Shown here: positions 511-36,622 of the stretch, piece after piece
How the letters are laid out: each line of letters begins with the position of its first letter
Numbering within the stretch: position 1 is the stretch's first letter
From: a virus
Lineage: Duplodnaviria; Heunggongvirae; Uroviricota; Caudoviricetes
IMG/VR virus record: IMGVR_UViG_2531839531_000013
Location: 1 to 36,622 of that record
Reading direction: 5' to 3' (one strand)
Length of the DNA stretch: 36,622 nucleotides
Translations under genes and position numbers: made by a program
Notes under the pieces: model-generated
Seen by the model: only the letters and a program-made list of their open reading frames with translations
Database searches by the model: none
What the model was told of the DNA's origin: nothing

Positions 511-1284
511 TTACAACTTAAAGAGTTTCGCTTGCCCTGGATTAACAGCTTCGACGTAGTTTTTGACCCCTATTCTGTGCGGCTCATAATTGCTTGAATA
601 GAAATCAATCAGGAAGTCACTCATTTTCTGAGATGTGACTTTCATAACTCCCTTACTCAAAGTTAAATTAAACACGCTAATCTTTGACGATGGTGCCTGA
701 GTTTTACTCATGTTGGCTTGATAACCAGATTTACGCATTGCCACTAGTGCTTCGTCGTAAGCCGCTTGTAATTGGGCCAAATCGTTTGACGAGATGATCA
801 CATCATCCATAAACACACTTAGCTTGAGATCATGATGTTTGTTCAATCGGCGTAGTAAGCTACCAAAATAACTTTTATCTAAGCAGAGGGTTGCAAGTAT
901 TGGAGATTGAACAAAACCAAAAGGGAGGACATGCTTATGTGGACTATGGGACAAGTTTCTTACAGTTGAAAATGTTGAGATTTCCCGCGCTTGAGAATAG
1001 GTGAAGTAGCTCTTTAGATCACGGGTGATACGACTACGGCTCGTTGACTGAAAAAATTGTTTAATATCAACAACGGCAAAAAAATCACTTTTTAAGTGTA
1101 ATCTGGCAGCTTTAAGATGCCCACCAGTTCTTAGATGGTAAAAATAGAGTGGCGGAATCCACTTGTTTCTGACATCCTGAAGTATCTTCCCTCCGACTTT
1201 ACGTGCCTCAACGCTTGGGACATAAACCCAAACCCCGGGCTTAATCTCAAATTTATCTTCCCACCTTTGAACTTCTATTGTCAT
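511..1284 (-). CDS. Compact reverse transcriptase-like protein (257 aa), cargo
   Basis: RT palm motifs occur in the correct order: FFAVVDIKQFFQS (motif A, Asp73), LPFGFVQSPILATL (motif B'), and FMDD (motif C, residues 158-161, codons 802-813). There is a retron-like AARLH just upstream of motif A. ATG at 1282-1284, with no own SD; the start lies inside the upstream ORF. Confidence 0.8.
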   Translation of the reverse strand: MTIEVQRWEDKFEIKPGVWVYVPSVEARKVGGKILQDVRNKWIPPLYFYHLRTGGHLKAARLHLKSDFFAVVDIKQFFQSTSRSRITRDLKSYFTYSQAREISTFSTVRNLSHSPHKHVLPFGFVQSPILATLCLDKSYFGSLLRRLNKHHDLKLSVFMDDVIISSNDLAQLQAAYDEALVAMRKSGYQANMSKTQAPSSKISVFNLTLSKGVMKVTSQKMSDFLIDFYSSNYEPHRIGVKNYVEAVNPGQAKLFKL

Positions 1285-8976: not shown

Positions 8977-9543
8977 TCAGGGGGATTCATTGATCTTATT
9001 TGCCGGAAATTTTCTATAAATGGTAGAAACGCCTACATCAAAAATCAGTGCAATACGCTGTCTTGATTCTCCGGCCTCGAGTAAACGCCCAATCTGTGCC
9101 CACTGTTCGGTGGTCAACTTAGGACGGCGTCCACCTACTCTGCCTTTGGCACGAGCTGCAGCCAGCCCTGCCCTGGTACGTTCAACTATCAGTTCGCGTT
9201 CCATTTCAGCCAGGGCACCCATGACATGAAAAAAGAAACGGCCCATTGGGGTACTGGTATCAATACTGTCAGTCAGGCTTCTGAAATTCACACCACGCTG
9301 GCGCAACTCTTCTATCAGCGTAACAAGATGCCGCATACTGCGCCCCAACCTGTCCAGCTTCCAGACAACCAGCGTGTCTCCTGCCGATAGTGTCCTGAGT
9401 AGTTTTTTCAGCCCCGGTCTGTCGGACTTAGTGCCACTGATTTTGTCCTCAAAAATCTGCTCACATCCCGCGCAGTTCAGTGCATTACGTTGCAAATCGG
9501 TGTTCTGGTCATTTGTTGACACGCGTACATAGCCAATAAGCAT
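8977..9543 (-). CDS. Serine DNA invertase (Hin/Gin/Cin/Pin family)
   Basis: MLIGYVRVSTNDQNTDLQRNAL... contains the catalytic Ser motif, and there is a C-terminal HTH. The start is taken at the MLIGY Met (9543), which is preceded by GGGGA. Confidence 0.95.
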   Translation of the reverse strand: MLIGYVRVSTNDQNTDLQRNALNCAGCEQIFEDKISGTKSDRPGLKKLLRTLSAGDTLVVWKLDRLGRSMRHLVTLIEELRQRGVNFRSLTDSIDTSTPMGRFFFHVMGALAEMERELIVERTRAGLAAARAKGRVGGRRPKLTTEQWAQIGRLLEAGESRQRIALIFDVGVSTIYRKFPANKINESP

Positions 9544-9598
9544 GATCATCCCCCTGAATAAAAACCGGAGATGATGCCAGTTAGCTGTTACCTCTGCA

Positions 9599-9624
9599 TT
9601 TTCTTAAACGTTGGTTTGGGAGAA
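9599..9624. repeat. Invertase crossover site (cix/hix-like, 26 bp), left
   Basis: ttttcttaaacgTTggtttgggagaa has reverse complement TTCTCCCAAACC AA CGTTTAAGAAAA. Its half-site and AA core are identical to the site at 11210-11235, in inverted orientation. Confidence 0.8.
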
Positions 9625-9954
9625 GCCAGATATGTCATTCAGCGAGGAGCTAATGCCAATGGTGCGTGGATACGCTGGTCAGATGGTGCAATAGAAGTCT
9701 TTGGAACGGGGGGTTCTAATGATAATGGACTGGCTAAAGTCGTTTATCCAATTGCGCTACCTAAGCTTTCACGTTTTATCAGCATAGCGGAAAGAATAGG
9801 AACGGATTATGGGGGCACATCTAATAATGTTCACGTTTCAATGATCGTGGATGACCAGGTCACTAATACCGGTTTTTATGTCCGCTGCCAGATGTACGAC
9901 GGAACACCATCAACAAGTGCTTTTTCCTGGAGGGTTTATTGTGCGCCTGTTTAA
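9625..9954 (+). CDS. Silent alternative tail-fibre C-terminal cassette (Hv', 109 codons, no start of its own)
   Basis: The frame reads ...FLNV GLGE ARYVIQRGANANG... through the crossover site. H reads ...LTYL GLGE GSALPV... through its own site, so inversion would give an in-frame fusion after H residue 354. Confidence 0.7.
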   Translation, partial: ARYVIQRGANANGAWIRWSDGAIEVFGTGGSNDNGLAKVVYPIALPKLSRFISIAERIGTDYGGTSNNVHVSMIVDDQVTNTGFYVRCQMYDGTPSTSAFSWRVYCAPV

Positions 9955-10138
9955 TCCTGTTACTTTGACTGAAGTAATCCCCGGTCTTCATGACGTGACC
10001 GGGGCTGTTGAATTACCAGAAGATAACTGGTTTTTTACTGCATCTGAAATCCCTGAAGGAATGGAAATATCTGTTAACGAGAAGGGAGAACCCATTCTGA
10101 TTGAGATTAAACCGTCTCAGGAGGAACTGGCCAGATGA
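9941..10138 (+). CDS. Alternative tail-fibre assembly protein fragment (G', 65 codons, GTG start)
   Basis: GGAGGG lies 6 nt upstream of GTG 9941. The ORF starts 14 nt before the Hv' stop and converges on, and overlaps, the 3' end of G (10107-10138). It lacks the conserved C-terminal module present in G. Confidence 0.5.
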   Translation: MRLFNPVTLTEVIPGLHDVTGAVELPEDNWFFTASEIPEGMEISVNEKGEPILIEIKPSQEELAR

Positions 10139-10712
10139 CATCTGGCGCGGTGCTGGTATCTGTTGCCATCACCGCGTCAGTGTAATCCAGCACGGCGTTA
10201 AGTCGGGTGTTTTCTGCCTGCGTCAGCTTCCGCCCGGCCTGCAATTTCAGTTGAATCAGACTAATGGAAACCATTGCAGCATCAATCAGCGACTGCCGCT
10301 GTGTTTCTGCCATGTCTACTGCTGCTCTATGCTGTGCCTCGGTATCCGTCACCCATTTCTCACCATCCCATTTATCGTATGGCGTTAACGGGGCGATAGT
10401 GGTTGTCTTTTCAGGGTAATCACCCGGAGCTGTGATTTCTTTTGATTCTCCTGTTTCGGTGCTATAGACGATTTCACCGCGATGGTCTGGCACATATTCC
10501 CATGAGTTAAAATCTGCAGAACGGCAAATTGCATAACCAGCTTTATATGAGCCAGGAGCATCTAAACAGGAACATGCCGGGATACCGACACCCACAGCAA
10601 GATATTCGGTTGATGTGGAAATATATTCTCGTGTTTCACCATCATAATTATAAACAGTAATATCTCCCGCCTTTGTGGCGATGAGTTCCTTATTTAATAT
10701 AGCTTTATCCAT
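10107..10712 (-). CDS. G: Tail fibre assembly chaperone gpG
   Basis: 201 aa with an ATGA overlap on the H stop. The C-terminal ...LQAGRKLTQAENTRLNAVLDYTDAV...WPVPP motif is typical of Tfa/U-family chaperones. Confidence 0.85.
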   Translation of the reverse strand: MDKAILNKELIATKAGDITVYNYDGETREYISTSTEYLAVGVGIPACSCLDAPGSYKAGYAICRSADFNSWEYVPDHRGEIVYSTETGESKEITAPGDYPEKTTTIAPLTPYDKWDGEKWVTDTEAQHRAAVDMAETQRQSLIDAAMVSISLIQLKLQAGRKLTQAENTRLNAVLDYTDAVMATDTSTAPDVIWPVPPETV

Positions 10713-20712: not shown

Positions 20713-22479
20713 ATGAACACCACACTGACACCCGCAGATCTCGATCCCCGTCGGCAGGCCATGCTGCTGTACTTTCAGGGATACCGCGTAGCCCGCATTG
20801 CTGAAATGCTGGGCGAGAAAGTTGCAACCGTTCACAGCTGGAAGAAACGCGACAAGTGGGGTGACTATGGGCCGCTGGATCAGATGCAGCTCACCACCGC
20901 CGCACGTTACTGCCAGCTCATTATGAAGGAGCACAAAGAAGGGAAAGATTTCAAAGAAATTGACCTGCTGGCGCGCCAGTCGGAGCGCCACGCGCGGATC
21001 GGCAAGTTTAACAATGGCGGCAACGAAGCCGACTTAAACCCTAACGTCGCCAACCGCAACAAAGGCCCGCGCCGTCAGCCGGAAAAGAATGTTTTCACCG
21101 ATGAACAGATAGAGAAACTGGAAGAAATCTTCCATTCCTCCATGTTCAACTACCAGCGCCACTGGTGGGAAGCCGGAAAAACCAACCGCATCCGCAACCT
21201 GCTGAAGTCACGCCAGATCGGCGCGACCTTTTACTTTGCCCGTGAAGCCCTGATTGACGCCCTGCTTACCGGACGTAACCAGATTTTCCTTTCTGCCAGT
21301 AAGGCACAGGCTCACGTCTTTAAGCAGTACATCATCGACTTCGCCAAAGAAGTCGAGGTGGAGCTGAAAGGCGATCCGATGGTGCTTCCTAACGGGGCCA
21401 CGCTTTACTTCCTCGGCACCAATGCCCGCACGGCGCAGAGTTACCACGGCAACCTGTATCTGGATGAATATTTCTGGATACCGAAATTCCAGGAGTTGCG
21501 CAAAGTGGCTTCCGGTATGGCTATTCACAAGAAATGGCGACAAACCTATTTTTCCACGCCATCCAGCCTGACCCACAGTGCTTATCCGTTCTGGTCCGGT
21601 GCGCTGTTCAACCGTGGACGCAACAAAGCTGACAAGGTGGACATCGACCTGTCCCACAGCAATCTGGCCCCCGGCCTACTGTGCGCAGACGGGCAATACC
21701 GCCAGATAGTCACCGTGGAAGATGCGGTGCGCGGCGGCTGTAACCTGTTCGACCTCGACCAGCTGCGCATGGAGTACAGCCCGGACGAATACCAGAACCT
21801 GCTGATGTGCGAGTTCGTGGACGATCTCGCGTCCGTGTTCCCGCTCAGCGAACTGCAGGCGTGCATGGTGGACAGCTGGGAAGTCTGGACCGACTTTCAT
21901 GCACTGGCCCTGCGCCCGTTTGGCTGGCGCGAAGTGTGGATCGGTTATGACCCGGCAAAAGGTACGCAGAACGGCGACAGTGCCGGATGCGTGGTGGTGG
22001 CTCCGCCAGCCGTGCCGGGTGGTAAGTTCCGCATTCTTGAGCGTCACCAGTGGCGCGGGATGGACTTCCGCGCCCAGGCTGACGCCATCAAAAAACTGAC
22101 CGAACAGTATAACGTGACCTATATCGGTATCGACTCGACCGGCGTCGGTCACGGGGTTTACGAGAACGTGAAAGCGTTTTTTCCTGCCGTCAGGGAGTTT
22201 GTCTATAACCCCAACGTTAAAAACGCCCTGGTACTCAAGGCCTACGACATTATCAGCCACCGCCGTCTGGAGTTTGACGCCGGGCACACCGACATTGCGC
22301 AGTCATTTATGGCAATCCGTCGCGCTACCACTGCCAGTGGCAACCGCCCGACCTATGAAGCCAGCCGCAGCGAAGAAGCCAGCCATGCCGATCTGGCCTG
22401 GGCAACAATGCACGCACTGTTTAACGAACCGCTGCAGGGCGAGTCCGCCAATACCAGCAATATTGTGGAGATTTTTTGA
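20713..22479 (+). CDS. P: Terminase large (ATPase) subunit gpP
   Basis: 588 aa. LKSRQIGATFYFAREA Walker-type motif, as in P2 gpP. Confidence 0.95.
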   Translation: MNTTLTPADLDPRRQAMLLYFQGYRVARIAEMLGEKVATVHSWKKRDKWGDYGPLDQMQLTTAARYCQLIMKEHKEGKDFKEIDLLARQSERHARIGKFNNGGNEADLNPNVANRNKGPRRQPEKNVFTDEQIEKLEEIFHSSMFNYQRHWWEAGKTNRIRNLLKSRQIGATFYFAREALIDALLTGRNQIFLSASKAQAHVFKQYIIDFAKEVEVELKGDPMVLPNGATLYFLGTNARTAQSYHGNLYLDEYFWIPKFQELRKVASGMAIHKKWRQTYFSTPSSLTHSAYPFWSGALFNRGRNKADKVDIDLSHSNLAPGLLCADGQYRQIVTVEDAVRGGCNLFDLDQLRMEYSPDEYQNLLMCEFVDDLASVFPLSELQACMVDSWEVWTDFHALALRPFGWREVWIGYDPAKGTQNGDSAGCVVVAPPAVPGGKFRILERHQWRGMDFRAQADAIKKLTEQYNVTYIGIDSTGVGHGVYENVKAFFPAVREFVYNPNVKNALVLKAYDIISHRRLEFDAGHTDIAQSFMAIRRATTASGNRPTYEASRSEEASHADLAWATMHALFNEPLQGESANTSNIVEIF

Positions 22480-23513
22480 TGGGAAAGAGTAAGAAGAACC
22501 GCGCTGCGTCGACGAAACAGATCCAGCATAAAAGCCAGACTTCAGCCGAAGCATTCAGCTTCGGTGATCCCGTTCCTGTTCTGGACCGCCGCGAACTGCT
22601 GGACTATGTGGAATGCGTACAGATGGATCGTTGGTACGAGCCGCCTGTGAGTTTCGACGGACTGGCGCGAACCTTCCGCGCCGCCGTGCATCACAGCTCA
22701 CCGATTGCAGTGAAGTGCAACATTCTGACCAGCACCTACATCCCTCACCCGCTGCTCAGCCAGCAGGCTTTTTCGCGTTTTGTACAGGACTATCTGGTTT
22801 TTGGTAACGCCTACCTGGAGAAACGCACGAACCGCTTCGGTGAAGTTATCGCCCTTGAGCCTGCACTGGCAAAATACACCCGACGCGGGTTAGACCTGGA
22901 TACCTACTGGTTTGTGCAATACGGCATGACTACGCAGCCGTATCAGTTCACGAAAGGCAACATTTTTCATCTGATGGAACCGGACATCAACCAGGAGATC
23001 TACGGCCTGCCTGGTTATCTTTCTGCCATTCCGTCAGCTCTGCTCAACGAGTCCGCCACGCTGTTCCGCCGCAAGTATTACATTAACGGCAGTCATGCAG
23101 GCTTCATCATGTACATGACCGATGCAGCGCAGAACCAGGAGGATGTGAACAACCTCCGCAATGCGATGAAAAGCGCCAAAGGTCCTGGTAACTTCCGTAA
23201 CCTGTTTATGTACTCGCCTAACGGTAAAAAGGACGGGCTTCAGATTATCCCGTTGTCAGAAGTGGCGGCGAAGGATGAGTTCCTGAATATCAAGAACGTG
23301 AGCCGGGACGACATGATGGCGGCGCATCGTGTGCCGCCACAAATGATGGGGATAATGCCTAATAATGTCGGGGGGTTTGGGGATGTGGAGAAGGCCAGTC
23401 GCGTATTTGTACGTAATGAATTAACGCCCTTGCAAAAAAGGCTACAAGAGCTGAACGACTGGCTGGGCGAAGAAGTGATTAAATTTACGCCCTATATTCT
23501 TTCAGAAGAATAA
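22476..23513 (+). CDS. Q: Portal protein gpQ
   Basis: 345 aa, ATGA-coupled to P, at the P2 gpQ position next to cos. Confidence 0.93.
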   Translation: MMGKSKKNRAASTKQIQHKSQTSAEAFSFGDPVPVLDRRELLDYVECVQMDRWYEPPVSFDGLARTFRAAVHHSSPIAVKCNILTSTYIPHPLLSQQAFSRFVQDYLVFGNAYLEKRTNRFGEVIALEPALAKYTRRGLDLDTYWFVQYGMTTQPYQFTKGNIFHLMEPDINQEIYGLPGYLSAIPSALLNESATLFRRKYYINGSHAGFIMYMTDAAQNQEDVNNLRNAMKSAKGPGNFRNLFMYSPNGKKDGLQIIPLSEVAAKDEFLNIKNVSRDDMMAAHRVPPQMMGIMPNNVGGFGDVEKASRVFVRNELTPLQKRLQELNDWLGEEVIKFTPYILSEE

Positions 23514-23521
23514 TTCCGAAC

Positions 23522-24220
23522 TTATTTGTTTCTTCTTTGTTCACGCCTTGTCTTGGCTTCGATAAGGCGTTGAGGTTCAGTGTAAAGCCGTTCTAAAAAA
23601 AGATAGGTAAAATCTTCAAGATCCTCAGCAGCAGCTTTATCCAAAATACCTTCATGCGCTCCATCATTTCCGTCATCTTTAACGCATTCAGCTAGTTCCC
23701 TTAAAGCTTCAGGCAGTAGATGATTATCAAATAACCACTCCATTCTTAACCCTAGGCTTCTCCTTATTTTTTGCGCAGGCCCTTGCTCCCCATCAGGAAG
23801 AAGTCCTTTTGTGGCATAATCAAGGCAAAGCCTAAACATGGTTGCTGCTGCATTATAACAACCTATAGCCAAACATTTCGCCCCTTCCTCATATGCACTA
23901 TTGATATGCTCAGGTAAGAACTCTGGTGGCTCCTCTACTGCTAAGTCTGCCGGTGATATAGGCCTAACAACCTCTGCAACTTCCTTTAAGCCGAATATTC
24001 CACTTTCCCAATTATAGCCATCTAAAGTTTTATTTTTCGTTAAAGGTCTGCAAAGAAACATTGTCGTTTTATGACACTCTCGGCAAACACAATAGACCTC
24101 GTATTCGTATGTTTTACCCCCGCCCAATGCATTGTAAACCCTAGTGCAATTCAGCCCATTAACATCAAACGCTATTTTTTGTGATCCACATCGTGGACAG
24201 TCATCCACTAACATAACCAT
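23522..24220 (-). CDS. Zinc-ribbon + DUF4145-like domain protein (cargo, 232 aa)
   Basis: The N-terminus CPRCGS...x34...CVCRECHK has four Cys. The C-terminal LGLRMEWLFDNHLLPEALRELAECVKDDGNDGAHEG...AEDLEDFTYLFLERLY matches my memory of the DUF4145 (PF13643) signature. The gene is AT-rich and has a GGGAGGAG SD. Confidence 0.7.
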   Translation of the reverse strand: MVMLVDDCPRCGSQKIAFDVNGLNCTRVYNALGGGKTYEYEVYCVCRECHKTTMFLCRPLTKNKTLDGYNWESGIFGLKEVAEVVRPISPADLAVEEPPEFLPEHINSAYEEGAKCLAIGCYNAAATMFRLCLDYATKGLLPDGEQGPAQKIRRSLGLRMEWLFDNHLLPEALRELAECVKDDGNDGAHEGILDKAAAEDLEDFTYLFLERLYTEPQRLIEAKTRREQRRNK

Positions 24221-24288
24221 GTCAATTACTCCTCCCTATGAAAAAAATGAGTTGAAAAATTGAATATTCACGACTTAAAAAGCTAGCC

Positions 24289-24317
24289 TATTTAACACCA
24301 TAATTTCATTAATTCAA
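24289..24317 (-). promoter_or_regulatory. Putative sigma70 promoter of the ZnR-DUF4145 gene
   Basis: On the minus strand: TTGAAT (24317-24312), a 17-nt spacer, then TAAATA (24294-24289). It begins 14 bp from the cos core. Confidence 0.45.
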
Positions 24318-24330
24318 CCATGAGCGCGCG

Positions 24331-24349
24331 CTCGTATCCCCGCCACGCC
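24331..24349. other. Probable cos cohesive-end site
   Basis: The reverse complement GGCGTGGCGGGGATACGAG shares its first 13 nt with the 19-nt 186 cos end as I remember it (GGCGTGGCGGGGAAAGCAT; P2 GGCGAGGCGGGGAAAGCAC). It sits in a GC-rich patch at the expected position beyond Q. Confidence 0.55.
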
Positions 24350-24390
24350 TGCCCGCTTTGTGTAGTGGTTTTCATGCACCTGCATGACAT

Positions 24391-24418
24391 AAGCAAAAGC
24401 CCGCCAGCTCTGGCGGGC
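24391..24418 (-). terminator. Rho-independent terminator downstream of the HNH gene
   Basis: On the minus strand: GCCCGCCAG-ag-CTGGCGGGC followed by TTTTGCTT. Confidence 0.6.
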
Positions 24419-24531
24419 ATCAGCAAAAACGATCCTCAAACGATCATGCGATTTCATGCGGCATAGACATGCGTTGGCAAAAATGTACGAAATACTCAGC
24501 TTATAGGAAATGGTCTTTTTCCAACCTCCAG

Positions 24532-25251
24532 TTAGCCAAAGCAGAAACCAATATTGCAATTTGAAACTCCACAGTTGTGAAATTGATGTGGACCTACTCT
24601 TAGCTTGTGTTCGTCTCCTACAATCCGAGTCCCCTTAACCAACATATCTAATCTTTCCACAATCAATCTTTCAGGCGCATCAACTTTAATAATTAAACGA
24701 GGACCTTTCCTTTTTTCTATAATAGTTATTCTAGGACCGACAACCTGAACATCCCAATGCCTTGCACTACAAACCCACTCATTCTTAATTAATTCAAGAT
24801 TAACAATACCTTGACTATCGTAAAATTTACCCGAAATAAGAAAAGCATTATTTTCTTTTTCAATGGTTAACAATGGCTCATTTTGAAACATTATTGGTAC
24901 AGTACAGGATTCAAACGTCGCACCACCAAATATTATTGTTGGATGCCTATCAGAAAAGTCCAATATATCGGCCACATTCCCTTTTTGTAAGGCTGCAGGA
25001 GATTCCATTGCTTTAATTATTTTCTCTTTAGAGTAAAGACGTTTCGTTACTTTCGCATGGCACGTAGGACAAAGTAGTGCTATTGCATTTGGAGAGTGCT
25101 CCTTTGCATCAGCGTATGTGGGAATTACATGCTCATACTCAACAATGGGAGAAGCACAAACAACGCAACCGAAGCCACAGCGCTGCCTTACCTCCAGTTT
25201 TACAGGTTCAGGAATTGTTCTAGATAACCCATGCTTGTTAATAGTTGTCAT
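24532..25251 (-). CDS. HNH endonuclease domain protein with unknown C-terminal domain (cargo, 239 aa)
   Basis: CGFGCVVC...VEYEHVIP...HSPNAIALLCPTCHAK carries the HNH/zinc motifs. The C-terminal ~150 aa are beta-rich with no motif I recognise. The gene is AT-rich and occupies the P2 old/tin position. Confidence 0.8.
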   Translation of the reverse strand: MTTINKHGLSRTIPEPVKLEVRQRCGFGCVVCASPIVEYEHVIPTYADAKEHSPNAIALLCPTCHAKVTKRLYSKEKIIKAMESPAALQKGNVADILDFSDRHPTIIFGGATFESCTVPIMFQNEPLLTIEKENNAFLISGKFYDSQGIVNLELIKNEWVCSARHWDVQVVGPRITIIEKRKGPRLIIKVDAPERLIVERLDMLVKGTRIVGDEHKLRVGPHQFHNCGVSNCNIGFCFG

Positions 25252-25373
25252 AACCTTACCTTAAAACTTCGAGAAACCTTTTATATATTGATACTATATC
25301 AACTAACGCCTCGCACAGCTCGTTGTTCAACCTTGCTGACGCCAGAAGCAAGTTCAGACGCCAGCAACGTTTC

Positions 25374-25607
25374 TTAATGCAGCCAGCTGTCGTCTTCCCA
25401 CACCTTCTGCATAATTTTCATCACTTGCTTCCTTTCTTCGTCCAGTTGCAGTCCGGTCAGTTCCACACCGTTAGAGCTACCTTTGCGGATGCGAATTACC
25501 GTTTTTGGATATAGGGGGCGCAGATTGCGGTAAAGCTCGGATTCAAGGGCGTCCAGGGTAGACTGGCTAATCTTCTGCTCTTTATCGATCATTATTTCAA
25601 TGCGCAT
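25374..25607 (-). CDS. DinI-family protein (77 aa)
   Basis: MRIEIMIDKEQKISQSTLDALESELYRNL...KIMQKVWEDDSWLH aligns with E. coli DinI (MRIEVTIAK...DALAGELSRR...ILQETWESADDWF). GAGGTG SD. Confidence 0.8.
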   Translation of the reverse strand: MRIEIMIDKEQKISQSTLDALESELYRNLRPLYPKTVIRIRKGSSNGVELTGLQLDEERKQVMKIMQKVWEDDSWLH

Positions 25608-25959: not shown

Positions 25960-28374
25960 TTAATACAGGTTTCGCCACTTATCATCTTCCTGCAAACGCT
26001 GGTTCCGATAGAAGATACGCAGGCCTGCTCCTGACGGAATACTGCCGCCGCGAAGGAGTAAATCGACCTCTTTCTCGCTGCCATCAAATCCTCTGGACTT
26101 CAGTTCATAGACGAGCTGCTGTCGCTGATGGTCTGTAATTCGCTGTTTGTAGTCTTTACGCCGTTTCGGTTTCACCAGGCGTAACCTTGCAGCCAGTTCC
26201 CGGCGCTCTTTTTTGCTCATACTGTGCAGGTAATCATGCAACTCCTTGTCATCCATGCGGGTAATGTCCGTCCTGGTATCCCCATCAGCTGATTTGTCTT
26301 TCCCTTGTTGGTTCAAATTTTCAGCAAGGGGACAGTTATTGCCACGAGTCCAAGGGGCGCAAGCGCCCTGGTCGGCTGCCGCCTCCTGAACGTCAACGGC
26401 TTTACGAACCATTTTCCACTTCACTGCATGAGTGCAGATCTTGCCCTCTGCAATGGGTGACCAGATGCCATAAATACGAATACCATGATCGCCATAGGCG
26501 GTCGGCTCTTCGTTAATTTCATAAGCAGTTCTGATGAGGTGATATTTACGGGGAACCAGTACACCTCCCTGCTTCATGATATAGGTGGCAAAACAACCAG
26601 CATCAGCAGCAGCCAGAATGGCATCAAGGCGCGGGTTATCCAGTACCGGCACACCTGCTTTTTTGTCACCCTGCTGCCTTGCCGCCTGACCAGCCAGCAA
26701 TCGCAGTTCACGGTAAGCCTGACGCCCCGGAATGCCAAAGAAGCGGAATTGCTGAACACGATGCAAAGACGCCCAGGCATTCACGTATTCAGCATTATCA
26801 CGCAGAGATTTACCCGTTTCCTTGCTGATCTCGCCAGCCAGACCACGCCCGTCAATGTTCTTGCTGATATATTTCGCGATGTAGCTTGTCGGCGTTCCTT
26901 TGCGCGGGTTAATCAACTCAGACTTAAAGCGTGGTCCCGTGTTATTCCCCAGCTCCTCGCGGTCTTCACGAATGGCAAACTTACGCAACAAAGCAGTAAT
27001 GGCGCGGCGATCTTTTTTGCGCATAAAACACAACAGGTGCCAGTGAACTGTACCGTCATGATGCGGCTCAGCCACCCGCACGCCATACCAGCGCAATCCG
27101 GCTTTGTGCATAGCCTTACGAAATGCAGCAAACATGCCGACCAGATAATCGCTGCTTTGTCTTACTGTCGCGTTGGTCCAGGTCGGGTTTGGCCTGCCGT
27201 TATTTAGCGTGGAATGGAAACGTGACGGACAGGTGATGGTGTAGAAAACGGCGCAGTCACCACGCATTTCCGCGATAAGCTCCAGACCTTTAACGCAGGC
27301 CATCATCTCATTGCGGCGATGCGCCGGGTTGCTGCTGCTGGCGTTTACCACATCCTCCATGTCCAGCATGTCGCCGTCTTCGTTCACCAGTTCATGAGAA
27401 CGGAAAAACTCCAGAGACTTACGGCGCTGCTCACGTTTATGCATCACGGCTTCATAGCTGACATAGGGAGATGCTTTTTTGCTGACCAGACAGACAGCAC
27501 GCAACTGCTCTTCCCGCCATTCGCAACGCATCTTCCATAATTTCCGATACCACCAGTCGGCGCACAGCATACGCGCCAGCGAACCCGGAATGAGTTCATA
27601 GGGCACAGGTTTGCGGCGGTTTCTTTTCCGGCGGAGTTGCTCAAACGCAGGCGGTATGACATCCAGTCGCAGGGTTTCTGCTGCCACCTTTTCCCATGTC
27701 TTGCGGATTTCTTCCGGCTTAACATCATCGGAGGCGTACAAATCACCACAAGCGGCATCAAGACACATGCTCATATGCGCAGCGACAAGGGTGGACAGGC
27801 GTTTCACCTGATCCTGACTCATTTCAGGCAGGATCAGCAGACCGTCCAGCCCTTCATGGCTTGCCATAAAACGAAAAGATGCAGATAGCTGGCTGTCGCG
27901 TACATGCTCCAGTCGTTCCAGGCATGGCTTAATCGTCTCACGCAAATAGCGGGAATAAGCCTTTGGCCTGCCCAGGTTGCTGAAGTATTTAATACGTTGC
28001 ATCAGCGGCTTGCTGATATGGGAAGGCTGGGCGTTGACATCCGCCAGAATGACCATATCCGGATTAAAACGCTGCTGCTCATGCGCCAGCTTTGCCCGGC
28101 TAATTAGCTTATCCTGCTCCATTTCGCGCTGGACAGGATCACGGGATTCATTAAAGAAATAACGCTCCCAGACCTGATCACTCAGTGCCTCGCGGCGCAG
28201 TTGTTCCTGCTCGTTATCGGCAGCGTACAGAGTGATCAGGTTTGAAAGCGCAGAAACCGGCGCAACTTCCGCCGGGTCCAGATAAGGGTTAATGGCCTTT
28301 TTCGGGCTGTTCCATGAGAATGCTGCGGCAGCCTCGTTAAAGCCGCAGCAGTTGTTCATATCGGCATGACTCAT
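25960..28374 (-). CDS. A: Replication initiation endonuclease gpA (HUH rolling-circle type)
   Basis: 804 aa with the HUH motif TVHWHLLCF and the Tyr motif [12 protein letters not shown]. Confidence 0.9.
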
Positions 28375-29228
28375 GCACGTACTCCGTACACGGCAGAACT
28401 GTCCACGCCACGCGAATAATCAAATCCCACCCAGCAGCGCGGCCCGGAAACAGCAATGATTTCTGTTGCTGATTTACCCTCGCCAGCTGCCACACCGATG
28501 CTGCGTTTTGCTTTGATGTAGTGGTGGGTGAAATTGCGATACAACGAACGGATCAGGGATGTGTCACTGTTAGAAACAATGACCGGATGTCCTTCTGATA
28601 ACCGATGTTCAAGAACGGATGCCAGGTGATACTGGTCATCTTCAGTGAAACCATCAGTGTGATAGCCGGAAAACGTACCGTCATACGGCGGATCGCAATA
28701 CACCACATCCCCCGCCTTCAACATCGCCAGCGTTTCATCAAAGCTGGCGCAGATAAACGTTGCTCGCTGGGCTTTTTCTGCAAATGCGCGAATTTCTTTT
28801 TCAGGGAAATACGGATTTTTATAATTACCGTAGGGAATGTTGAAATGCCCGCTCTTGTTATAGCGACATAAACCACGGTAACCGTGACGATTGAGATACA
28901 GGAAATATACCGCTTTCATGAAATCAGTAATTTCAGTTGAGTAATTAAACTCCTGCCTTATGTTGTAATAAGCCACCTCCCTGTTTGCTTCCTCAAATAA
29001 AGCTCTGGCGCGAGATATAAACGATTCACAATCAGCAGCAACCTTTTTATAGAGGTTGATTAAATCAGGATTAATATCCGCAACAAGATAGCTGGGGTAC
29101 TCCGTCTCCATCATCACAGCACAGGAACCCGCGAAAGGTTCAACCAGTCGCGGGCCAGCAGGAAGATGCTTTTTCAGTTCGGACATAATGGCGGTTTTAT
29201 TTCCCGCCCATTTCAGGATGGTGCTCAT
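28371..29228 (-). CDS. dam: DNA adenine methyltransferase (Dam family, orphan)
   Basis: [17 protein letters not shown] (SAM-binding) and DPPY motifs. The start is taken at MSTILKW (GGAGG SD), overlapping the upstream stop. Confidence 0.9.
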
Positions 29229-29452
29229 ACAGCACCTCCGTTGTAATGTTTGCCTTTCAGCTCTGCGATTTCCTGACAGGTAATGCAAAGCTGCACACCC
29301 GGAATGGCGCGGCGGCGTGCTGGCGGAATTGGCGCTTCACACTCAATGCAAAGCACGCGGGACACGCCCGGCGTTTTGGCACGGGCAGAACGGATATGGC
29401 GCTGGCGTTCTTCTTCAACGCGCTGCTGTACGAGATCCATTGCATCAGCCAT
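29225..29452 (-). CDS. TraR/DksA-family zinc-finger protein
   Basis: C-terminal CIECEAPIPPARRRAIPGVQLCITCQ is a four-Cys finger. Confidence 0.8.
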   Translation of the reverse strand: MADAMDLVQQRVEEERQRHIRSARAKTPGVSRVLCIECEAPIPPARRRAIPGVQLCITCQEIAELKGKHYNGGAV

Positions 29453-31806: not shown

Positions 31807-32823
31807 ATGACTGTCAGAAAACAGCCAAACGGCAAATGGTTGTGTGAGTGCTATCCCAATGGACGCAATGGCAAGCGCGTGCGTAAGCAATTTGCTACGA
31901 AAGGAGAAGCCATTGCTTTTGAAAGCTTCACAATGGAAGAAGTGAATAAAAAACCGTGGCTAGGTGAAAAGGATGATCGGCGACGCCTATCAGAATTAAT
32001 TGAGCTTTGGTATTCCCTGTATGGCCAGACACTCGCAGACCCCAAGCGCCTCATGGCGAAACTTAGAATTATCTGTAATGGTCTAGGCGACCCCATCGCC
32101 TCAGAACTGACAGCCGGTGACTTTACAAAATACCGCGAAGCACGGTTAAAAGGCGACGTTCGTAACGAAGACGGCACACTAATGTCGCCAGTAAAACCAC
32201 GCACGGTGAATCTTGAGCAACGTAACCTATCATCGGTTTTCGGCACATTGAAAAAACTAGGCCACTGGTCAGCACCAAATCCTCTCGCCGGGCTGCCAAC
32301 ATTTAAAATCGCTGAGGGGGAACTGGCGTTCCTGACCTCGGAAGAAATTAAACGTCTGCTAGATGCCTGCGCTGATTCTCAAAACCCCAGTCTGCTTTTG
32401 ATTGCAAAAATATGCCTGGCCACCGGCGCACGCTGGAGTGAAGCCGAAAACCTGCAGGGCCATCAGTTATCTAAATACCGCATCACTTATACCAAGACGA
32501 AGGGCAAGAAAAACCGCACCGTGCCGATATCTCAAGATCTGTATGACGAACTCCCCAAGAACAGAGGGAAGCTATTCACCCCGTGCAGAAAAGCCTTTGA
32601 ACGGGCAGTAAAGCGAGCTGGCATCGAGCTGCCAGAGGGCCAATGCACTCACGTGCTACGTCATACATTCGCCAGTCATTTTATGATGAATGGCGGAAAC
32701 ATACTGGTCCTACGCGATATTCTGGGCCATGCCGATATAAAAATGACGATGATTTACGCCCACTTTTCGCCGGATCATCTTGAAGATGCAGTTACTAAAA
32801 ACCCTTTATGCAACTTAAGATAG
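31807..32823 (+). CDS. int: Tyrosine integrase (P2/186 family)
   Basis: 338 aa with ATGARWSEA (Arg), HVLRHTFASH (HxxR) and LGHADIKMTMIYAH (His/Tyr). Confidence 0.9.
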   Translation: MTVRKQPNGKWLCECYPNGRNGKRVRKQFATKGEAIAFESFTMEEVNKKPWLGEKDDRRRLSELIELWYSLYGQTLADPKRLMAKLRIICNGLGDPIASELTAGDFTKYREARLKGDVRNEDGTLMSPVKPRTVNLEQRNLSSVFGTLKKLGHWSAPNPLAGLPTFKIAEGELAFLTSEEIKRLLDACADSQNPSLLLIAKICLATGARWSEAENLQGHQLSKYRITYTKTKGKKNRTVPISQDLYDELPKNRGKLFTPCRKAFERAVKRAGIELPEGQCTHVLRHTFASHFMMNGGNILVLRDILGHADIKMTMIYAHFSPDHLEDAVTKNPLCNLR

Positions 32824-33201: not shown

Positions 33202-34935
33202 CTACTCAAGAAGATATTCTAACTCATCTTTTATCGGGATAACTTGCTCATAAAGTCGGTGATATGACTTCCCAATTGCGCCTCTGAATTGTATTAACTT
33301 TGGTGGCTTGTTACCTATATTAATAATATGGTCTTGAGCTATACCTGGGTAGGGATCAATAAATACAATTTCAGATATACCTAACTGATAAGCTTTTTTC
33401 GCACACAGCTCACAGGGACTGGCAGTTGTATATAACCTCCCCCCCTGAACGCCAATGCCACCATATTTTGCAAGTTGTAAAAATGCGTTTTCCTCAGCAT
33501 GTAATGCACGTGTATGAACTTGATTACCTTTTTTATCTTTATCAAGATCATTATGTATATCTTTAAAACAATAAGATAAGTTCCTGCCTCTATAAATATC
33601 ACCAGTTTTATCTATCGCCCTAAAATTTAATAGTTTCTCATTAGCTTTAATTCTGAAAGAACTATTATTTCTCTCATAATGACTGTACACTTTTTCATCA
33701 AAGTCGTTCATTAGGCCATCTAGCGATCTCATAGAGCAAGGAATCTGACCGTTGGCGACATCATTCCAACCCACTGATTTTATTGAATTTTCACCATCAG
33801 TTACTACAGCTCCCACCTGTCTAGATATACAACCAGAGTTTAATTTTACCGTATACGCAACTTGCATAACCCTTTCCATTGCAGTAGGTGTTATCAGACC
33901 AGGATGCTTCATCAGTGCGATGTACCACGCTAATTGTGCTTTTAAAATATTGTCATTATCAAATTCATTTTTTGGGTTAAAAATGTGTATATCTGATAGT
34001 TCAATGCATTTAGTTACATTTGGATTAGTGAGATGTTTGTAAGAGTTATCACCTTTACCTGACTCTACAGAATCTATTTCCTCTATCTGCTTTTCAGAAA
34101 ACTTATGTAGTTTCCGCAAATAGTTTGTTCGATGTTCATCTGGGGCATTTATTGACATTAAATGAAATGCAGAATATCTATCCTTAAAAAATTTTGCTTC
34201 ATATGGATTTCTAATAGCATCTATGACAATTAATGCGTTATCTCTTTTGCTTTTTCTTATTAATTTAATAACCCTATTAATAGTTTCCGGCAAATGAAAA
34301 ACAGATTTAGGTATAAACTCTTTATCTTCAAAATCGACTTCAATACGCCCACGGCGTCTAATTGACTTACCTGCTAACTGATAGACTGAAACATATAAAT
34401 TTGAGTTTATCGCATTTAGTTCAGCTTTGAATTCCTTAGTAAATTTTCTAACTAACCTCAAAATTGATATAAATTTATTAATCGTTTTTTCATTAAGCTT
34501 CAATTCACTATTATGATCAAGCAAATTCTCAATTACATTTTTAAATCTTGTTAAAATGAGATTATCTGAAAATACACCAAAAGTTAATACATTATCTAAA
34601 TGCTCTTTACTGATAGATTTATTAGATGATAGAATAAACTCAGAAGCTTCTTCAACTGTTAACATCAAAAGATACGCTGAGATTAGGTCACTCACCTTAA
34701 TTGAGTAAAAATTTTCCCAGTGATTTTCTGCGAATTTTTTAACTATATTATAACGATGGACATCCAATCCCTTGTAAAAACCCTGTAATTTACTTACATC
34801 AGGGAAGACTGTTTTTTCGTTTTCAAGAATATTAGCTGTTGTTGTGCAACCAGAACCAGTTCGACCTGTCAAACCGACTAAAATAAACTGCCCATTTTCA
34901 AGGAAAAGCTCACTAACGAATTTTTTTTCTTTCAT
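33202..34935 (-). CDS. P-loop kinase-like + cytidine/dCMP deaminase fusion (dCTP-deaminase type anti-phage protein)
   Basis: N-terminal Walker A GLTGRTGSGCTT. C-terminal zinc-deaminase motifs RQVGAVV, HAEENA and PCELCAKK. The region is very AT-rich (for example, 34441-34500 has 11 G/C in 60 nt). ATG 34935 is preferred over GTG 34938. Confidence 0.85.
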   Translation of the reverse strand: MKEKKFVSELFLENGQFILVGLTGRTGSGCTTTANILENEKTVFPDVSKLQGFYKGLDVHRYNIVKKFAENHWENFYSIKVSDLISAYLLMLTVEEASEFILSSNKSISKEHLDNVLTFGVFSDNLILTRFKNVIENLLDHNSELKLNEKTINKFISILRLVRKFTKEFKAELNAINSNLYVSVYQLAGKSIRRRGRIEVDFEDKEFIPKSVFHLPETINRVIKLIRKSKRDNALIVIDAIRNPYEAKFFKDRYSAFHLMSINAPDEHRTNYLRKLHKFSEKQIEEIDSVESGKGDNSYKHLTNPNVTKCIELSDIHIFNPKNEFDNDNILKAQLAWYIALMKHPGLITPTAMERVMQVAYTVKLNSGCISRQVGAVVTDGENSIKSVGWNDVANGQIPCSMRSLDGLMNDFDEKVYSHYERNNSSFRIKANEKLLNFRAIDKTGDIYRGRNLSYCFKDIHNDLDKDKKGNQVHTRALHAEENAFLQLAKYGGIGVQGGRLYTTASPCELCAKKAYQLGISEIVFIDPYPGIAQDHIINIGNKPPKLIQFRGAIGKSYHRLYEQVIPIKDELEYLLE

Positions 34936-35017
34936 CACGTCCCACTTATGAATGTAAGAATATTCAACATATTAATTATAATTTATTAACTCATTTTGTT
35001 CTAGATACTTGATGTAA

Positions 35018-35380: not shown

Positions 35381-36622
35381 ATGGCAAGACAAACCAAACC
35401 TCTATCCGTTAAAGAAATAGAATCAGCCAAACCCAAGGAGGCGGACTACGTTCTCTATGATGGCGATGGCCTTGAGCTACTCATTAAATCCAGCGGGAGT
35501 AAAATCTGGCAGTTTCGCTACATTCGCCCTGTCACCAAGAAACGAGCAAAGAAGAGCATAGGCTCCTACCCGTCAGTTACCCTTGCCGATGCCAGAAACT
35601 ACCGTGCAGAGTCCCGCTCACTACTGGCTAAACAGATCGATCCGCAGGAACATCAGCAAGAACAATTGCGCAGTTCGCTGGAAGCCAAAACCAACACTTT
35701 CCAACTCGTAGCTGAACGTTGGTGGAATGTGAAGAAAGCCAGTGTGACAGAGGACTATGCGGAAGATATCTGGCGCTCTCTTGAAAGAGACGTCTTTCCT
35801 GCGATTGGCGACGTTAGCGTTACAGATATTAAAGCTCATACACTGGTTCAGGCCGTACAACCGGTTCAGGCCAGAGGAGCACTGGAAACTGTTCGTCGCC
35901 TGTGCCAACGTATTAATGAGGTCATGATCTATGCCCAGAACACAGGGCTGATTGATGCTGTTCCCAGCGTTAATATCGGTAAAGCCTTCGAGAAGCCTCA
36001 GAAAAAGAACATGCCCAGCATTCGACCGGATCAGCTACCTCAGTTAATGCAGACGATGCGAACAGCCAGCATTAGCCTTTCCACACGCTGCCTGTTCATG
36101 TGGCAACTTCTTACTATTACCCGCCCTGCCGAAGCGGCTGAAGCTCTCTGGGAAGAGGTAGACATAGAAGCGCGAGAGTGGAAGATTCCTGCAGCACGCA
36201 TGAAAATGAACCGCGACCATACTGTTCCATTGTCAGATGAAGCAATTGCGATACTAGAGATGATGAAGCCGTTAAGTGGAAATCGAGAATTTATCTTTCC
36301 CAGCCGCATCAAGCCAAACCAGCCGATGAACAGTCAGACCGTAAACGCATCGCTAAAACGCGCAGGTTTTGGTGGGGTGCTCGTTTCACACGGCCTGCGA
36401 TCTATCGCCAGTACAGCCCTTAATGAGCAGGGATTTCCACCTGATGTTATTGAGGCTGCACTTGCTCATGTGGATAAGAATGAGGTTCGTCGTGCGTATA
36501 ACCGTAGTGATTATCTTGAGCAGCGACGGCCTATGATGCAGTGGTGGGCTGATTTTGTGATGGCTGCAGATCACGGTAGTATGATTGAAGGAGGGATAAA
36601 GGCAATGCGGTTAGTTGGATGA
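35381..36622 (+). CDS. intA: P4-family tyrosine integrase (CP4-57 IntA-like)
   Basis: 413 aa. MARQTKPL...LYDGDGL.LLIKSSGSK.WQFRY N-terminus, with TITRPAEAA, HGLRSIAST and AHVDKNEVRRAYNRSDY catalytic motifs. Closely resembles K-12 IntA as I remember it. Confidence 0.93.
   Translation: MARQTKPLSVKEIESAKPKEADYVLYDGDGLELLIKSSGSKIWQFRYIRPVTKKRAKKSIGSYPSVTLADARNYRAESRSLLAKQIDPQEHQQEQLRSSLEAKTNTFQLVAERWWNVKKASVTEDYAEDIWRSLERDVFPAIGDVSVTDIKAHTLVQAVQPVQARGALETVRRLCQRINEVMIYAQNTGLIDAVPSVNIGKAFEKPQKKNMPSIRPDQLPQLMQTMRTASISLSTRCLFMWQLLTITRPAEAAEALWEEVDIEAREWKIPAARMKMNRDHTVPLSDEAIAILEMMKPLSGNREFIFPSRIKPNQPMNSQTVNASLKRAGFGGVLVSHGLRSIASTALNEQGFPPDVIEAALAHVDKNEVRRAYNRSDYLEQRRPMMQWWADFVMAADHGSMIEGGIKAMRLVG

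Follow-up and report, generated by a model that had tools for sequence, protein, structure and literature searches.

The accessory hotspot beside cos in P2-like phages

The interval between gpA and gpQ of P2-like phages, next to the cohesive-end site (cos), is a published hotspot of defence genes (Rousset et al. 2022, PMC9122126), confirmed by Vassallo et al. (2022, PMC9519451) and by a 2026 census (PMC13586616). Its founding examples are old and tin of P2, and 1,650 different arrangements have been recorded among 18,150 loci (Rousset et al. 2022, PMC9122126); a paper on Ralstonia P2-like phages likewise mentions variation 'close to cosL' (PMC5694545). The hotspot of P4 satellites is similar in that accessory defence genes lie right beside the cos shared by P2 and P4, although it belongs to another element and has other flanks (integrase and psu-delta-sid). 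The P2 literature considered here treats the gpA-gpQ interval as one hotspot and does not separate the sides of cos. Here, we describe a stretch of viral DNA of 36,622 nucleotides (IMG/VR record IMGVR_UViG_2531839531_000013, positions 1 to 36,622; hereafter the window) that carries one cargo gene on each side of cos, a zinc-ribbon-DUF4145 gene towards gpQ (the Q side) and an HNH nuclease gene towards gpA (the A side), and in which, in contrast to the treatment of the interval as one, the two sides assort independently.

The locus shares with the published hotspot the landmarks gpA, DinI, cos, and gpQ, as well as variable, low-GC accessory genes in collinear prophages. In P2 itself all cargo (old and tin) is on the A side and the distance from cos to gpQ is 187 bp, whereas in the window both sides are filled. 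The DUF4145 protein WP_000245245 and the HNH protein WP_000207842 are both present in the supplementary arrangement table of Rousset et al. (2022, PMC9122126), where the HNH protein is listed as 'hypothetical'. The locus is an ordinary example of the described P2 defence hotspot and not a two-gene system. What is added here is the division of the hotspot into two independently assorting slots around an anchor of 149 bp, the restriction of each gene family to one side, and the RAZR-like nature of the Q-side gene.

RAZR is the new name of PD-T7-4, or 'Zn finger-HEPN', a single-protein abortive-infection RNase (Zhang et al. 2026, PMC13017515). Once assembled as a 24-mer around the rings formed by phage portal proteins or by an Erf-like recombinase, it cuts RNA; both R146 and H154 are required, and specificity is set by the zinc-finger domain, which varies more than the rest of the protein (PMC13017515). 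Sensor and effector are carried in one polypeptide (PMC13017515). DUF4145, the domain found in the window, is a HEPN family (PMC3710099).

Two cassettes around a conserved cos segment

The boundaries of the two cassettes are given by comparison of the window with eleven related prophages and with the two genome ends of phage Cartapus, which carry other cargo. In relatives that share the HNH gene and lack the DUF4145 gene, homology stops at 23440-23487, at the 3' end of gpQ, and resumes at 24302-24324. In relatives that share the DUF4145 gene and lack the HNH gene, it stops at 24472-24473 and resumes at 25300-25376. These breakpoints delimit a Q-side cargo cassette from gpQ to cos (23514-24323) and an A-side cargo cassette from cos to DinI (24473-25302), and the overlap of the two sets of homology blocks defines a conserved cos segment of 149 bp (24324-24472) that is kept in every relative compared, whatever their cargo. 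The Q-side and A-side cassettes have GC contents of 0.40 and 0.38, respectively, lower than those of the cos segment (0.56) and of the backbone (0.53-0.55). A first-pass annotation of this DNA had described one AT-rich islet; there are instead two AT-rich cassettes, split by a segment of backbone-like composition. Among relatives with flanks of 94-99% identity, at least six alternative states are found on the Q side and at least six on the A side.

As described earlier, both cargo genes are on the minus strand, with 311 bp between them (24221-24531). The Q-side gene (23522-24220) encodes a zinc-ribbon-DUF4145 (HEPN-like) protein of 232 residues and is convergent with the portal gene gpQ (22476-23513, plus strand; Pfam Phage_portal, E 9.7e-19), the backbone flank of this slot, the two stop codons being 8 bp apart (23514-23521). 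The A-side gene (24532-25251) encodes the HNH nuclease of 239 residues, and its slot is flanked on the backbone side by a DinI-family gene (25374-25607, minus strand; Pfam DinI, E 1.3e-22) that is annotated as a 77-residue protein in relatives. The two cargo genes are separate transcription units and separate recombination modules. A scan for sigma-70 sites gave no convincing promoter on the minus strand ahead of either gene, with site counts no higher than in shuffled sequences.

The putative cohesive-end core of 19 nucleotides is at 24331-24349 on the minus strand, between the DUF4145 and HNH genes, where the first-pass annotation had placed it. The reverse complement of this interval, GGCGTGGCGGGGATACGAG, aligns column for column with the mapped P2 cohesive end (cosL/cosR), GGCGAGGCGGGGAAAGCAC, with 14/19 identities within a longer conserved block, and the Cartapus sequence annotated as 'putative cos site' is the same. 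The motif is single in the window with up to three mismatches allowed and never occurs in shuffled sequences (0 expected by chance); moreover, an identical or near-identical motif is located between gpA and gpQ in 56 IMG/VR loci. The assignment of cos to 24331-24349 is thus well supported by its homology to the mapped P2 site.

The core is at the Q-side edge of the 149-bp segment, and the Q-side cassette starts only 7-29 bp away from it. The segment is strongly asymmetric, extending about 7 bp from the core towards gpQ and about 123 bp towards gpA, and because of this asymmetry any terminase-recognition sequence must be on the A side. The A-side part holds a small hairpin (24353-24368) and a terminator hairpin. 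The latter, identified by a terminator scan and folding on the minus strand (24418-24399), resembles an intrinsic terminator, with a stem of 8 pairs (7 G-C) ahead of a T-run (-21.2 kcal/mol, z -2.7), and is also found in Cartapus, whose A-side cargo differs. The hairpin had been read as the terminator of the HNH gene. Its position in the gap is correct, but it is not a property of the HNH cassette, since it is inside the cos segment common to relatives with other A-side cargo; it is a backbone feature that ends A-side transcription before cos. An open reading frame (ORF) of 81 residues with a TTG start (24314-24559, minus strand) extends over the cos core and the hairpin and is probably spurious, as it has no family match and covers a conserved non-coding segment. 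Since cos is cut between the two slots, the two genes are placed at opposite ends of the virion DNA, and nothing found suggests that this placement has a functional meaning.

Independent assortment and side fidelity

To what extent the two genes travel together is seen in a census of 5,426 complete Escherichia coli genomes, about 1,256 of which match the cos segment. Of the 5,426 genomes, 43 have the DUF4145 gene, 21 have the HNH gene, and 3 have the two together; these 3 represent two strains (one strain is present together with its derivative). The pair thus makes up 3/61 carrier genomes; 40/43 carriers of the DUF4145 gene do not have the HNH gene, and 18/21 carriers of the HNH gene do not have the DUF4145 gene. 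In IMG/VR, both families were sought within 6 kb in 80 HNH-family and 79 DUF4145-family loci, and they occur together in 0/159. Likewise, a DUF4145-family gene is found in none of 80 HNH-family loci from distinct species genomes, one of which is P2-like.

Each gene also has many different partners across cos. The identical HNH protein WP_000207842 is paired with an 89-residue ORF, a 351-residue PIN protein, two small ORFs, or a 554-residue ORF; an 86%-identical homologue in Citrobacter freundii is paired with a RES-domain protein; and in one IMG/VR contig with the HNH gene the Q-side slot is nearly empty. The DUF4145 protein WP_000245245 and its close variants are combined with at least five other A-side contents, including that of Cartapus/LF82. 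In an enterotoxigenic E. coli (ETEC) strain, the DUF4145 gene is paired with a gene for a DUF2971 protein, at a divergence comparable to that of the C. freundii locus and of a Citrobacter enshiensis locus considered below. Outside the P2 context, no conserved neighbour was found in more than 6/31 dereplicated loci for the HNH family or more than 3/25 for the DUF4145 family, and this absence fits a single-gene system in the case of DUF4145.

While the combinations vary, the side does not. In all 47 cos-containing P2-like IMG/VR loci with a DUF4145-family gene, down to about 50% identity to the protein in the window, this gene is located between cos and gpQ, transcribed away from cos and convergent with gpQ. 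The HNH family is located between gpA/DinI and cos in 10/10 such loci. These loci are related by descent, and 47/47 and 10/10 should not be taken as a probability. Nevertheless, they show that each family keeps to its own slot, as expected from homologous exchange between slot flanks. The families differ in how far they are tied to this type of phage: 50/79 viral DUF4145-family loci are P2-like, whereas the HNH family is mostly found elsewhere, with 68/80 viral and 79/80 genomic loci having no P2 markers. In Pseudomonas palleroniana (CP194560.1; 8001-8696 of locus L021), a DUF4145 homologue of 50% identity is present alone, just outside the integrase of a P2-like prophage.

Taken together, we are highly confident that the locus is a cos-proximal accessory hotspot of a P2-like prophage with two sub-slots, in which single-gene cassettes are exchanged independently around the 149-bp cos segment. 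Each sub-slot would hold a single AT-rich cassette that was gained by horizontal transfer and consists of one gene and its own expression signals, and the cassettes would be swapped independently by homologous recombination, with gpQ and cos as anchors for the Q side and cos and DinI/gpA for the A side. Because the cassettes exchange independently, the combination seen in the window is one of many. The importance of this finding is modest: the published 'gpA-gpQ hotspot' consists of two separately exchanging slots, each with its resident families. In practice, counts of systems derived from arrangements at gpA-gpQ should be split at cos, so that unrelated neighbours such as the pair described here are not counted as systems of several genes. 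The first-pass annotation had offered a double-sided hotspot around cos as one of two readings and considered it unusual; the independence of the two sides is supported by their assortment, but the hotspot itself is not unusual, having already been published.

A RAZR-like protein on the Q side

The Q-side protein is assigned to DUF4145 by Pfam (PF13643, 30.3 bits against a cut-off of 23.1, E 4.5e-7). An alignment of 45 family members shows that C8, C11, C46, C49, K181, and H189 are invariant, that the most variable region is between the zinc ribbon and the helical domain, and that conservation is high in the C-terminal domain, which has the motif C-x-K-DD-GNDGAH-x-G. The AlphaFold 2 model (predicted local distance difference test score, pLDDT, of 86) consists of an N-terminal beta-sheet domain (residues 1-88) and a C-terminal helical domain, and its best matches in the PDB are HEPN proteins, with a Foldseek probability of about 0.9 and E-values of only 0.3-0.5.

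The only recurrent PADLOC match of the family is PD-T7-4, which is returned for 44/45 members (best E 3.6e-11) and, for the protein in the window, with E 1.2e-6 over positions 39-165 of the 211 in the profile. The likeness to RAZR/PD-T7-4 is also seen in the architecture, an N-terminal Cys4 zinc ribbon and a C-terminal DUF4145/HEPN domain encoded by a single gene, and in the contrast between a variable zinc-finger region and a conserved HEPN region. Moreover, by the PADLOC profile offset the invariant H189 would correspond to RAZR H154; by the same offset, the residue eight positions before it, where RAZR would have R146 (R-x7-H), is the invariant lysine K181. On the other hand, the similarity is distant, the N-terminal domain in the window is larger (232 residues in total against a profile of 211 positions), and the niche is different, in that PD-T7-4 homologues are reported to overlap the integrase gene whereas the gene in the window is in the P2-like cos-gpQ slot. 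Thus, the DUF4145 protein appears to be a distant RAZR-like relative whose membership of the family is only partly established.

Profile and single-sequence searches of the PDB with E-values up to 10 returned nothing relevant, and Foldseek against the PDB returned generic HEPN proteins only. An exhaustive profile search gave only closer DUF4145-family members among the best 150 of 1,890 matches, and NCBIfam has no name for either the DUF4145 or the HNH protein. The 'putative HEPN' protein of pFR103 tested by Rousset et al. is a different protein, whose sequence starts with MNDIFVLTREE.

By analogy with RAZR/PD-T7-4, the Q-side cassette would encode a zinc-ribbon-HEPN RNase that acts by abortive infection and stays inactive until it is assembled by a ring-forming protein of an invading phage. 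The gene is transcribed in the lysogenic state of a relative: for the same allele (CARTA_1) in the LF82 lysogen, whose prophage is Cartapus, the log2(FPKM+5) (FPKM, fragments per kilobase of transcript per million mapped reads) is 4.7 in LB and lies at 7-9.6 under other conditions, compared with about 2.5-3 for the adjoining portal gene, and expression is likewise seen for the A-side gene CARTA_47 (PMC9928086 supplement). Portal rings of other phages are a known trigger of RAZR, and here only 8 bp separate the RAZR-like gene from the stop codon of its own phage's portal gene; the resident phage would need to avoid RAZR-like activation during its own lytic cycle. This widespread RAZR-like subfamily, with a lysine at the presumed position of the catalytic arginine and located beside a P2-like portal gene, is a candidate for testing.

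A putative HNH nuclease with a second domain on the A side

The A-side protein is assigned to the HNH family by Pfam (24.8 bits against a cut-off of 21.4). It consists of an N-terminal HNH domain with a CCCC zinc site and a C-terminal all-beta domain of about 145 residues (92-238). In its family, C29, C32, H41, H52, and C61 are invariant, and C64 is conserved in at least 90% of members, so that both the zinc-site cysteines and the catalytic histidine are kept. The AlphaFold 2 model has a pLDDT of 94.8, and Foldseek matches cover only the first 80-90 residues: EcoKMcrA, ScoMcrA, the CBASS protein Cap5, and IscB in the PDB, and phage HNH proteins in BFVD. No structural match to the all-beta domain (residues 92-238) was returned by Foldseek. 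The protein belongs to phrog_6544 of PHROGs (E 2.5e-111), a group of unknown function. The HNH-plus-beta-domain family is spread across many bacterial phyla and a few archaeal metagenome-assembled genomes (Methanophagales and Methanothrix) and matches no annotated family.

The characterized proteins that come closest are EcoKMcrA and ScoMcrA, of type IV restriction, and Cap5. They share with the A-side protein a beta-beta-alpha-metal core, a four-cysteine zinc site, and encoding by a stand-alone gene, and the HNH cores are similar over about 80-90 residues (Foldseek probability 0.9-0.99, with weak E-values of 0.02-0.2). They differ in the second domain, which in the window is all-beta and unmatched and is not an SRA, SAVED, or McrA N-terminal domain. 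Given the slot in which the gene is found and its closest HNH folds, the A-side protein is, by analogy, most probably a stand-alone exclusion nuclease, in which a putative DNase domain of the HNH type is fused to an uncharacterized beta domain. This broadly distributed protein, to which no function is assigned, is a second candidate for testing. A gene for a Dam-type N6-adenine methyltransferase (28371-29288, minus strand) is directly upstream of gpA, as in Cartapus, and would become relevant if the HNH protein proves to be modification-dependent.

Alternative explanations

Several findings speak against our interpretation of two independent single-gene defence cassettes. On the Q side, the PD-T7-4 match of the protein in the window is weak (26 bits over about 60% of the profile), a lysine is invariant in the family where RAZR has a catalytic arginine, and RAZR itself was not returned by the profile search or by Foldseek against the PDB, where the presence of the entries 9Y9C and 9Y6U is uncertain. 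On the A side, no convincing PADLOC defence model was found for the HNH protein, the only match being mREase_IV with E 0.0095. As for the independence of the two genes, the number of E. coli genomes with both is nominally above expectation (3 observed, 0.7 expected under independence; Fisher one-sided p = 0.03, or p = 0.14 after collapsing the clonal pair), which leaves room for weak synergy. In addition, the pair recurs in C. enshiensis (CP119862.1; 4952-6705 of locus L014), with 84% amino acid identity for the HNH protein and 89% for the DUF4145 protein.

One may also argue that the RAZR-like family occupies the cos-gpQ slot for a reason rather than by chance and that the two sides of cos are functionally distinct niches rather than one hotspot. 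This idea arises because RAZR is triggered by portal-sized rings and the RAZR-like gene is beside the portal gene of its own phage, at a distance of 8 bp, in 47/47 loci. If so, linkage could be selected to co-inherit a sensor allele together with a self-portal allele that does not trigger it; or, since the Q-side cassette starts so close to the cohesive-end core, the RAZR-like gene may need the very end of the virion DNA. We regard such a division into niches as unlikely.

Somewhat less likely still is that the HNH gene encodes a selfish, homing-type endonuclease that cuts HNH-less P2-like genomes near cos and spreads by recombinational repair. The gene is free-standing, occupies an intergenic slot, and has sharp insertion boundaries; a nearly identical allele (at least 99.4% nucleotide identity) is found over diverse E. 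coli backgrounds; and its BFVD matches include phage HNH homing endonucleases. However, the slot holds many unrelated cargos, so its turnover needs no homing, and the closest solved HNH domains come from the defence nucleases McrA, ScoMcrA, and Cap5. In addition, no recognizable DNA-binding module of known homing enzymes was found, and the family is widespread in chromosomes across phyla.

The other reading offered by the first-pass annotation was that the two genes form one system, in which the DUF4145 protein senses and the HNH protein executes, assembled as a unit only in the circular or integrated genome. The genes are indeed adjacent, on the same strand, and both AT-rich, and the recurrence in C. 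enshiensis and the excess of E. coli genomes with both can be cited in its favour. Nevertheless, the C. enshiensis prophage is the only diverged recurrence of the pair found, and throughout the 5.5 kb compared, from gpP to gpA, its locus remains collinear with the window at about 80% nucleotide identity, which fits vertical descent of one phage lineage. At equal divergence, the C. freundii prophage pairs the HNH gene with a RES-domain gene and the ETEC strain pairs the DUF4145 gene with a DUF2971 gene. Most carriers have one gene without its partner, none of the 239 loci examined elsewhere has both families, a terminator and cos are located between the genes, and the RAZR-type architecture is self-sufficient (PMC13017515). 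Thus, a sensor-plus-nuclease unit existing only in the lysogen is not supported by the co-occurrence statistics that the first-pass annotation had called for, in which the pair is seen in three E. coli genomes and in C. enshiensis, and it is very improbable for two separate transcription units with no conserved partner.

An HNH gene beside cos, terminase, and portal genes is reportedly the layout of HK97-type phages, described by Kala and co-workers in 2014. A packaging role for the HNH protein, comparable with that of HK97 gp74, in which it is located near cos to aid cutting by the terminase, would fit the position of the gene next to cos and near the terminase and portal genes, but is excluded in practice and hardly credible. 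The gene is found neither in P2 nor in Cartapus, a phage shown to produce virions, and is missing in about 98% of the E. coli genomes sharing the cos segment (it is present in 21 of about 1,256 and is not a conserved part of the packaging module). Moreover, it is in a swappable low-GC cassette, encodes a protein of 239 residues with an extra beta domain, and belongs to a family most of whose members are not near P2-type packaging genes.

The rest of the prophage

Judged by its gene content, the window as a whole is a P2-like (Peduoviridae) prophage in an orientation opposite to the standard P2 map. The gene order around cos according to Pfam is gpP, gpQ, cargo, cos, cargo, DinI, and gpA, in which gpP, the large terminase (20713-22479, plus strand), adjoins the portal gene and gpA, the replication endonuclease (25960-28374, minus strand; Pfam Phage_GPA, E 5.6e-127), is the outer landmark of the published hotspot. 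Elsewhere in the window, there are a P2-type ogr, tail genes, a CI-type repressor, and an integrase.

Possible accessory genes are also found at other positions. A reverse transcriptase of 257 residues (511-1284, minus strand) is identified by Pfam RVT_1 (E 1.8e-21), with the retron model RT_VI as its best PADLOC match (E 7.8e-18). The GC 0.40 stretch that holds its gene is just past ogr (1688-1939), where the prophage ends on the attR side, and may represent a second accessory position, occupied by a retron-type defence gene. At the other end, a gene encoding a protein of 578 residues (33202-34938, minus strand) matches the PADLOC dCTPase model (dCTP deaminase defence, E 2.9e-145). It is in a very AT-rich stretch (GC 0.30-0.34), with the P2-like integrase (31807-32823) on one side and, on the other, another and different integrase (35381-36622) that runs off the window.

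Finally, a serine resolvase/invertase gene (8977-9549, minus strand; Pfam Resolvase, E 2.3e-53, and HTH_7) is located near a tail-fibre assembly gene (10107-10712). It is adjoined by a short ORF (9571-9954, plus strand) that resembles a tail-fibre C terminus, with a weak match to Pfam Gp53-like_C (20.6 bits, below the cut-off of 24.9). This region looks like an invertible tail-fibre switch of host range at the position of P2 Z/fun.

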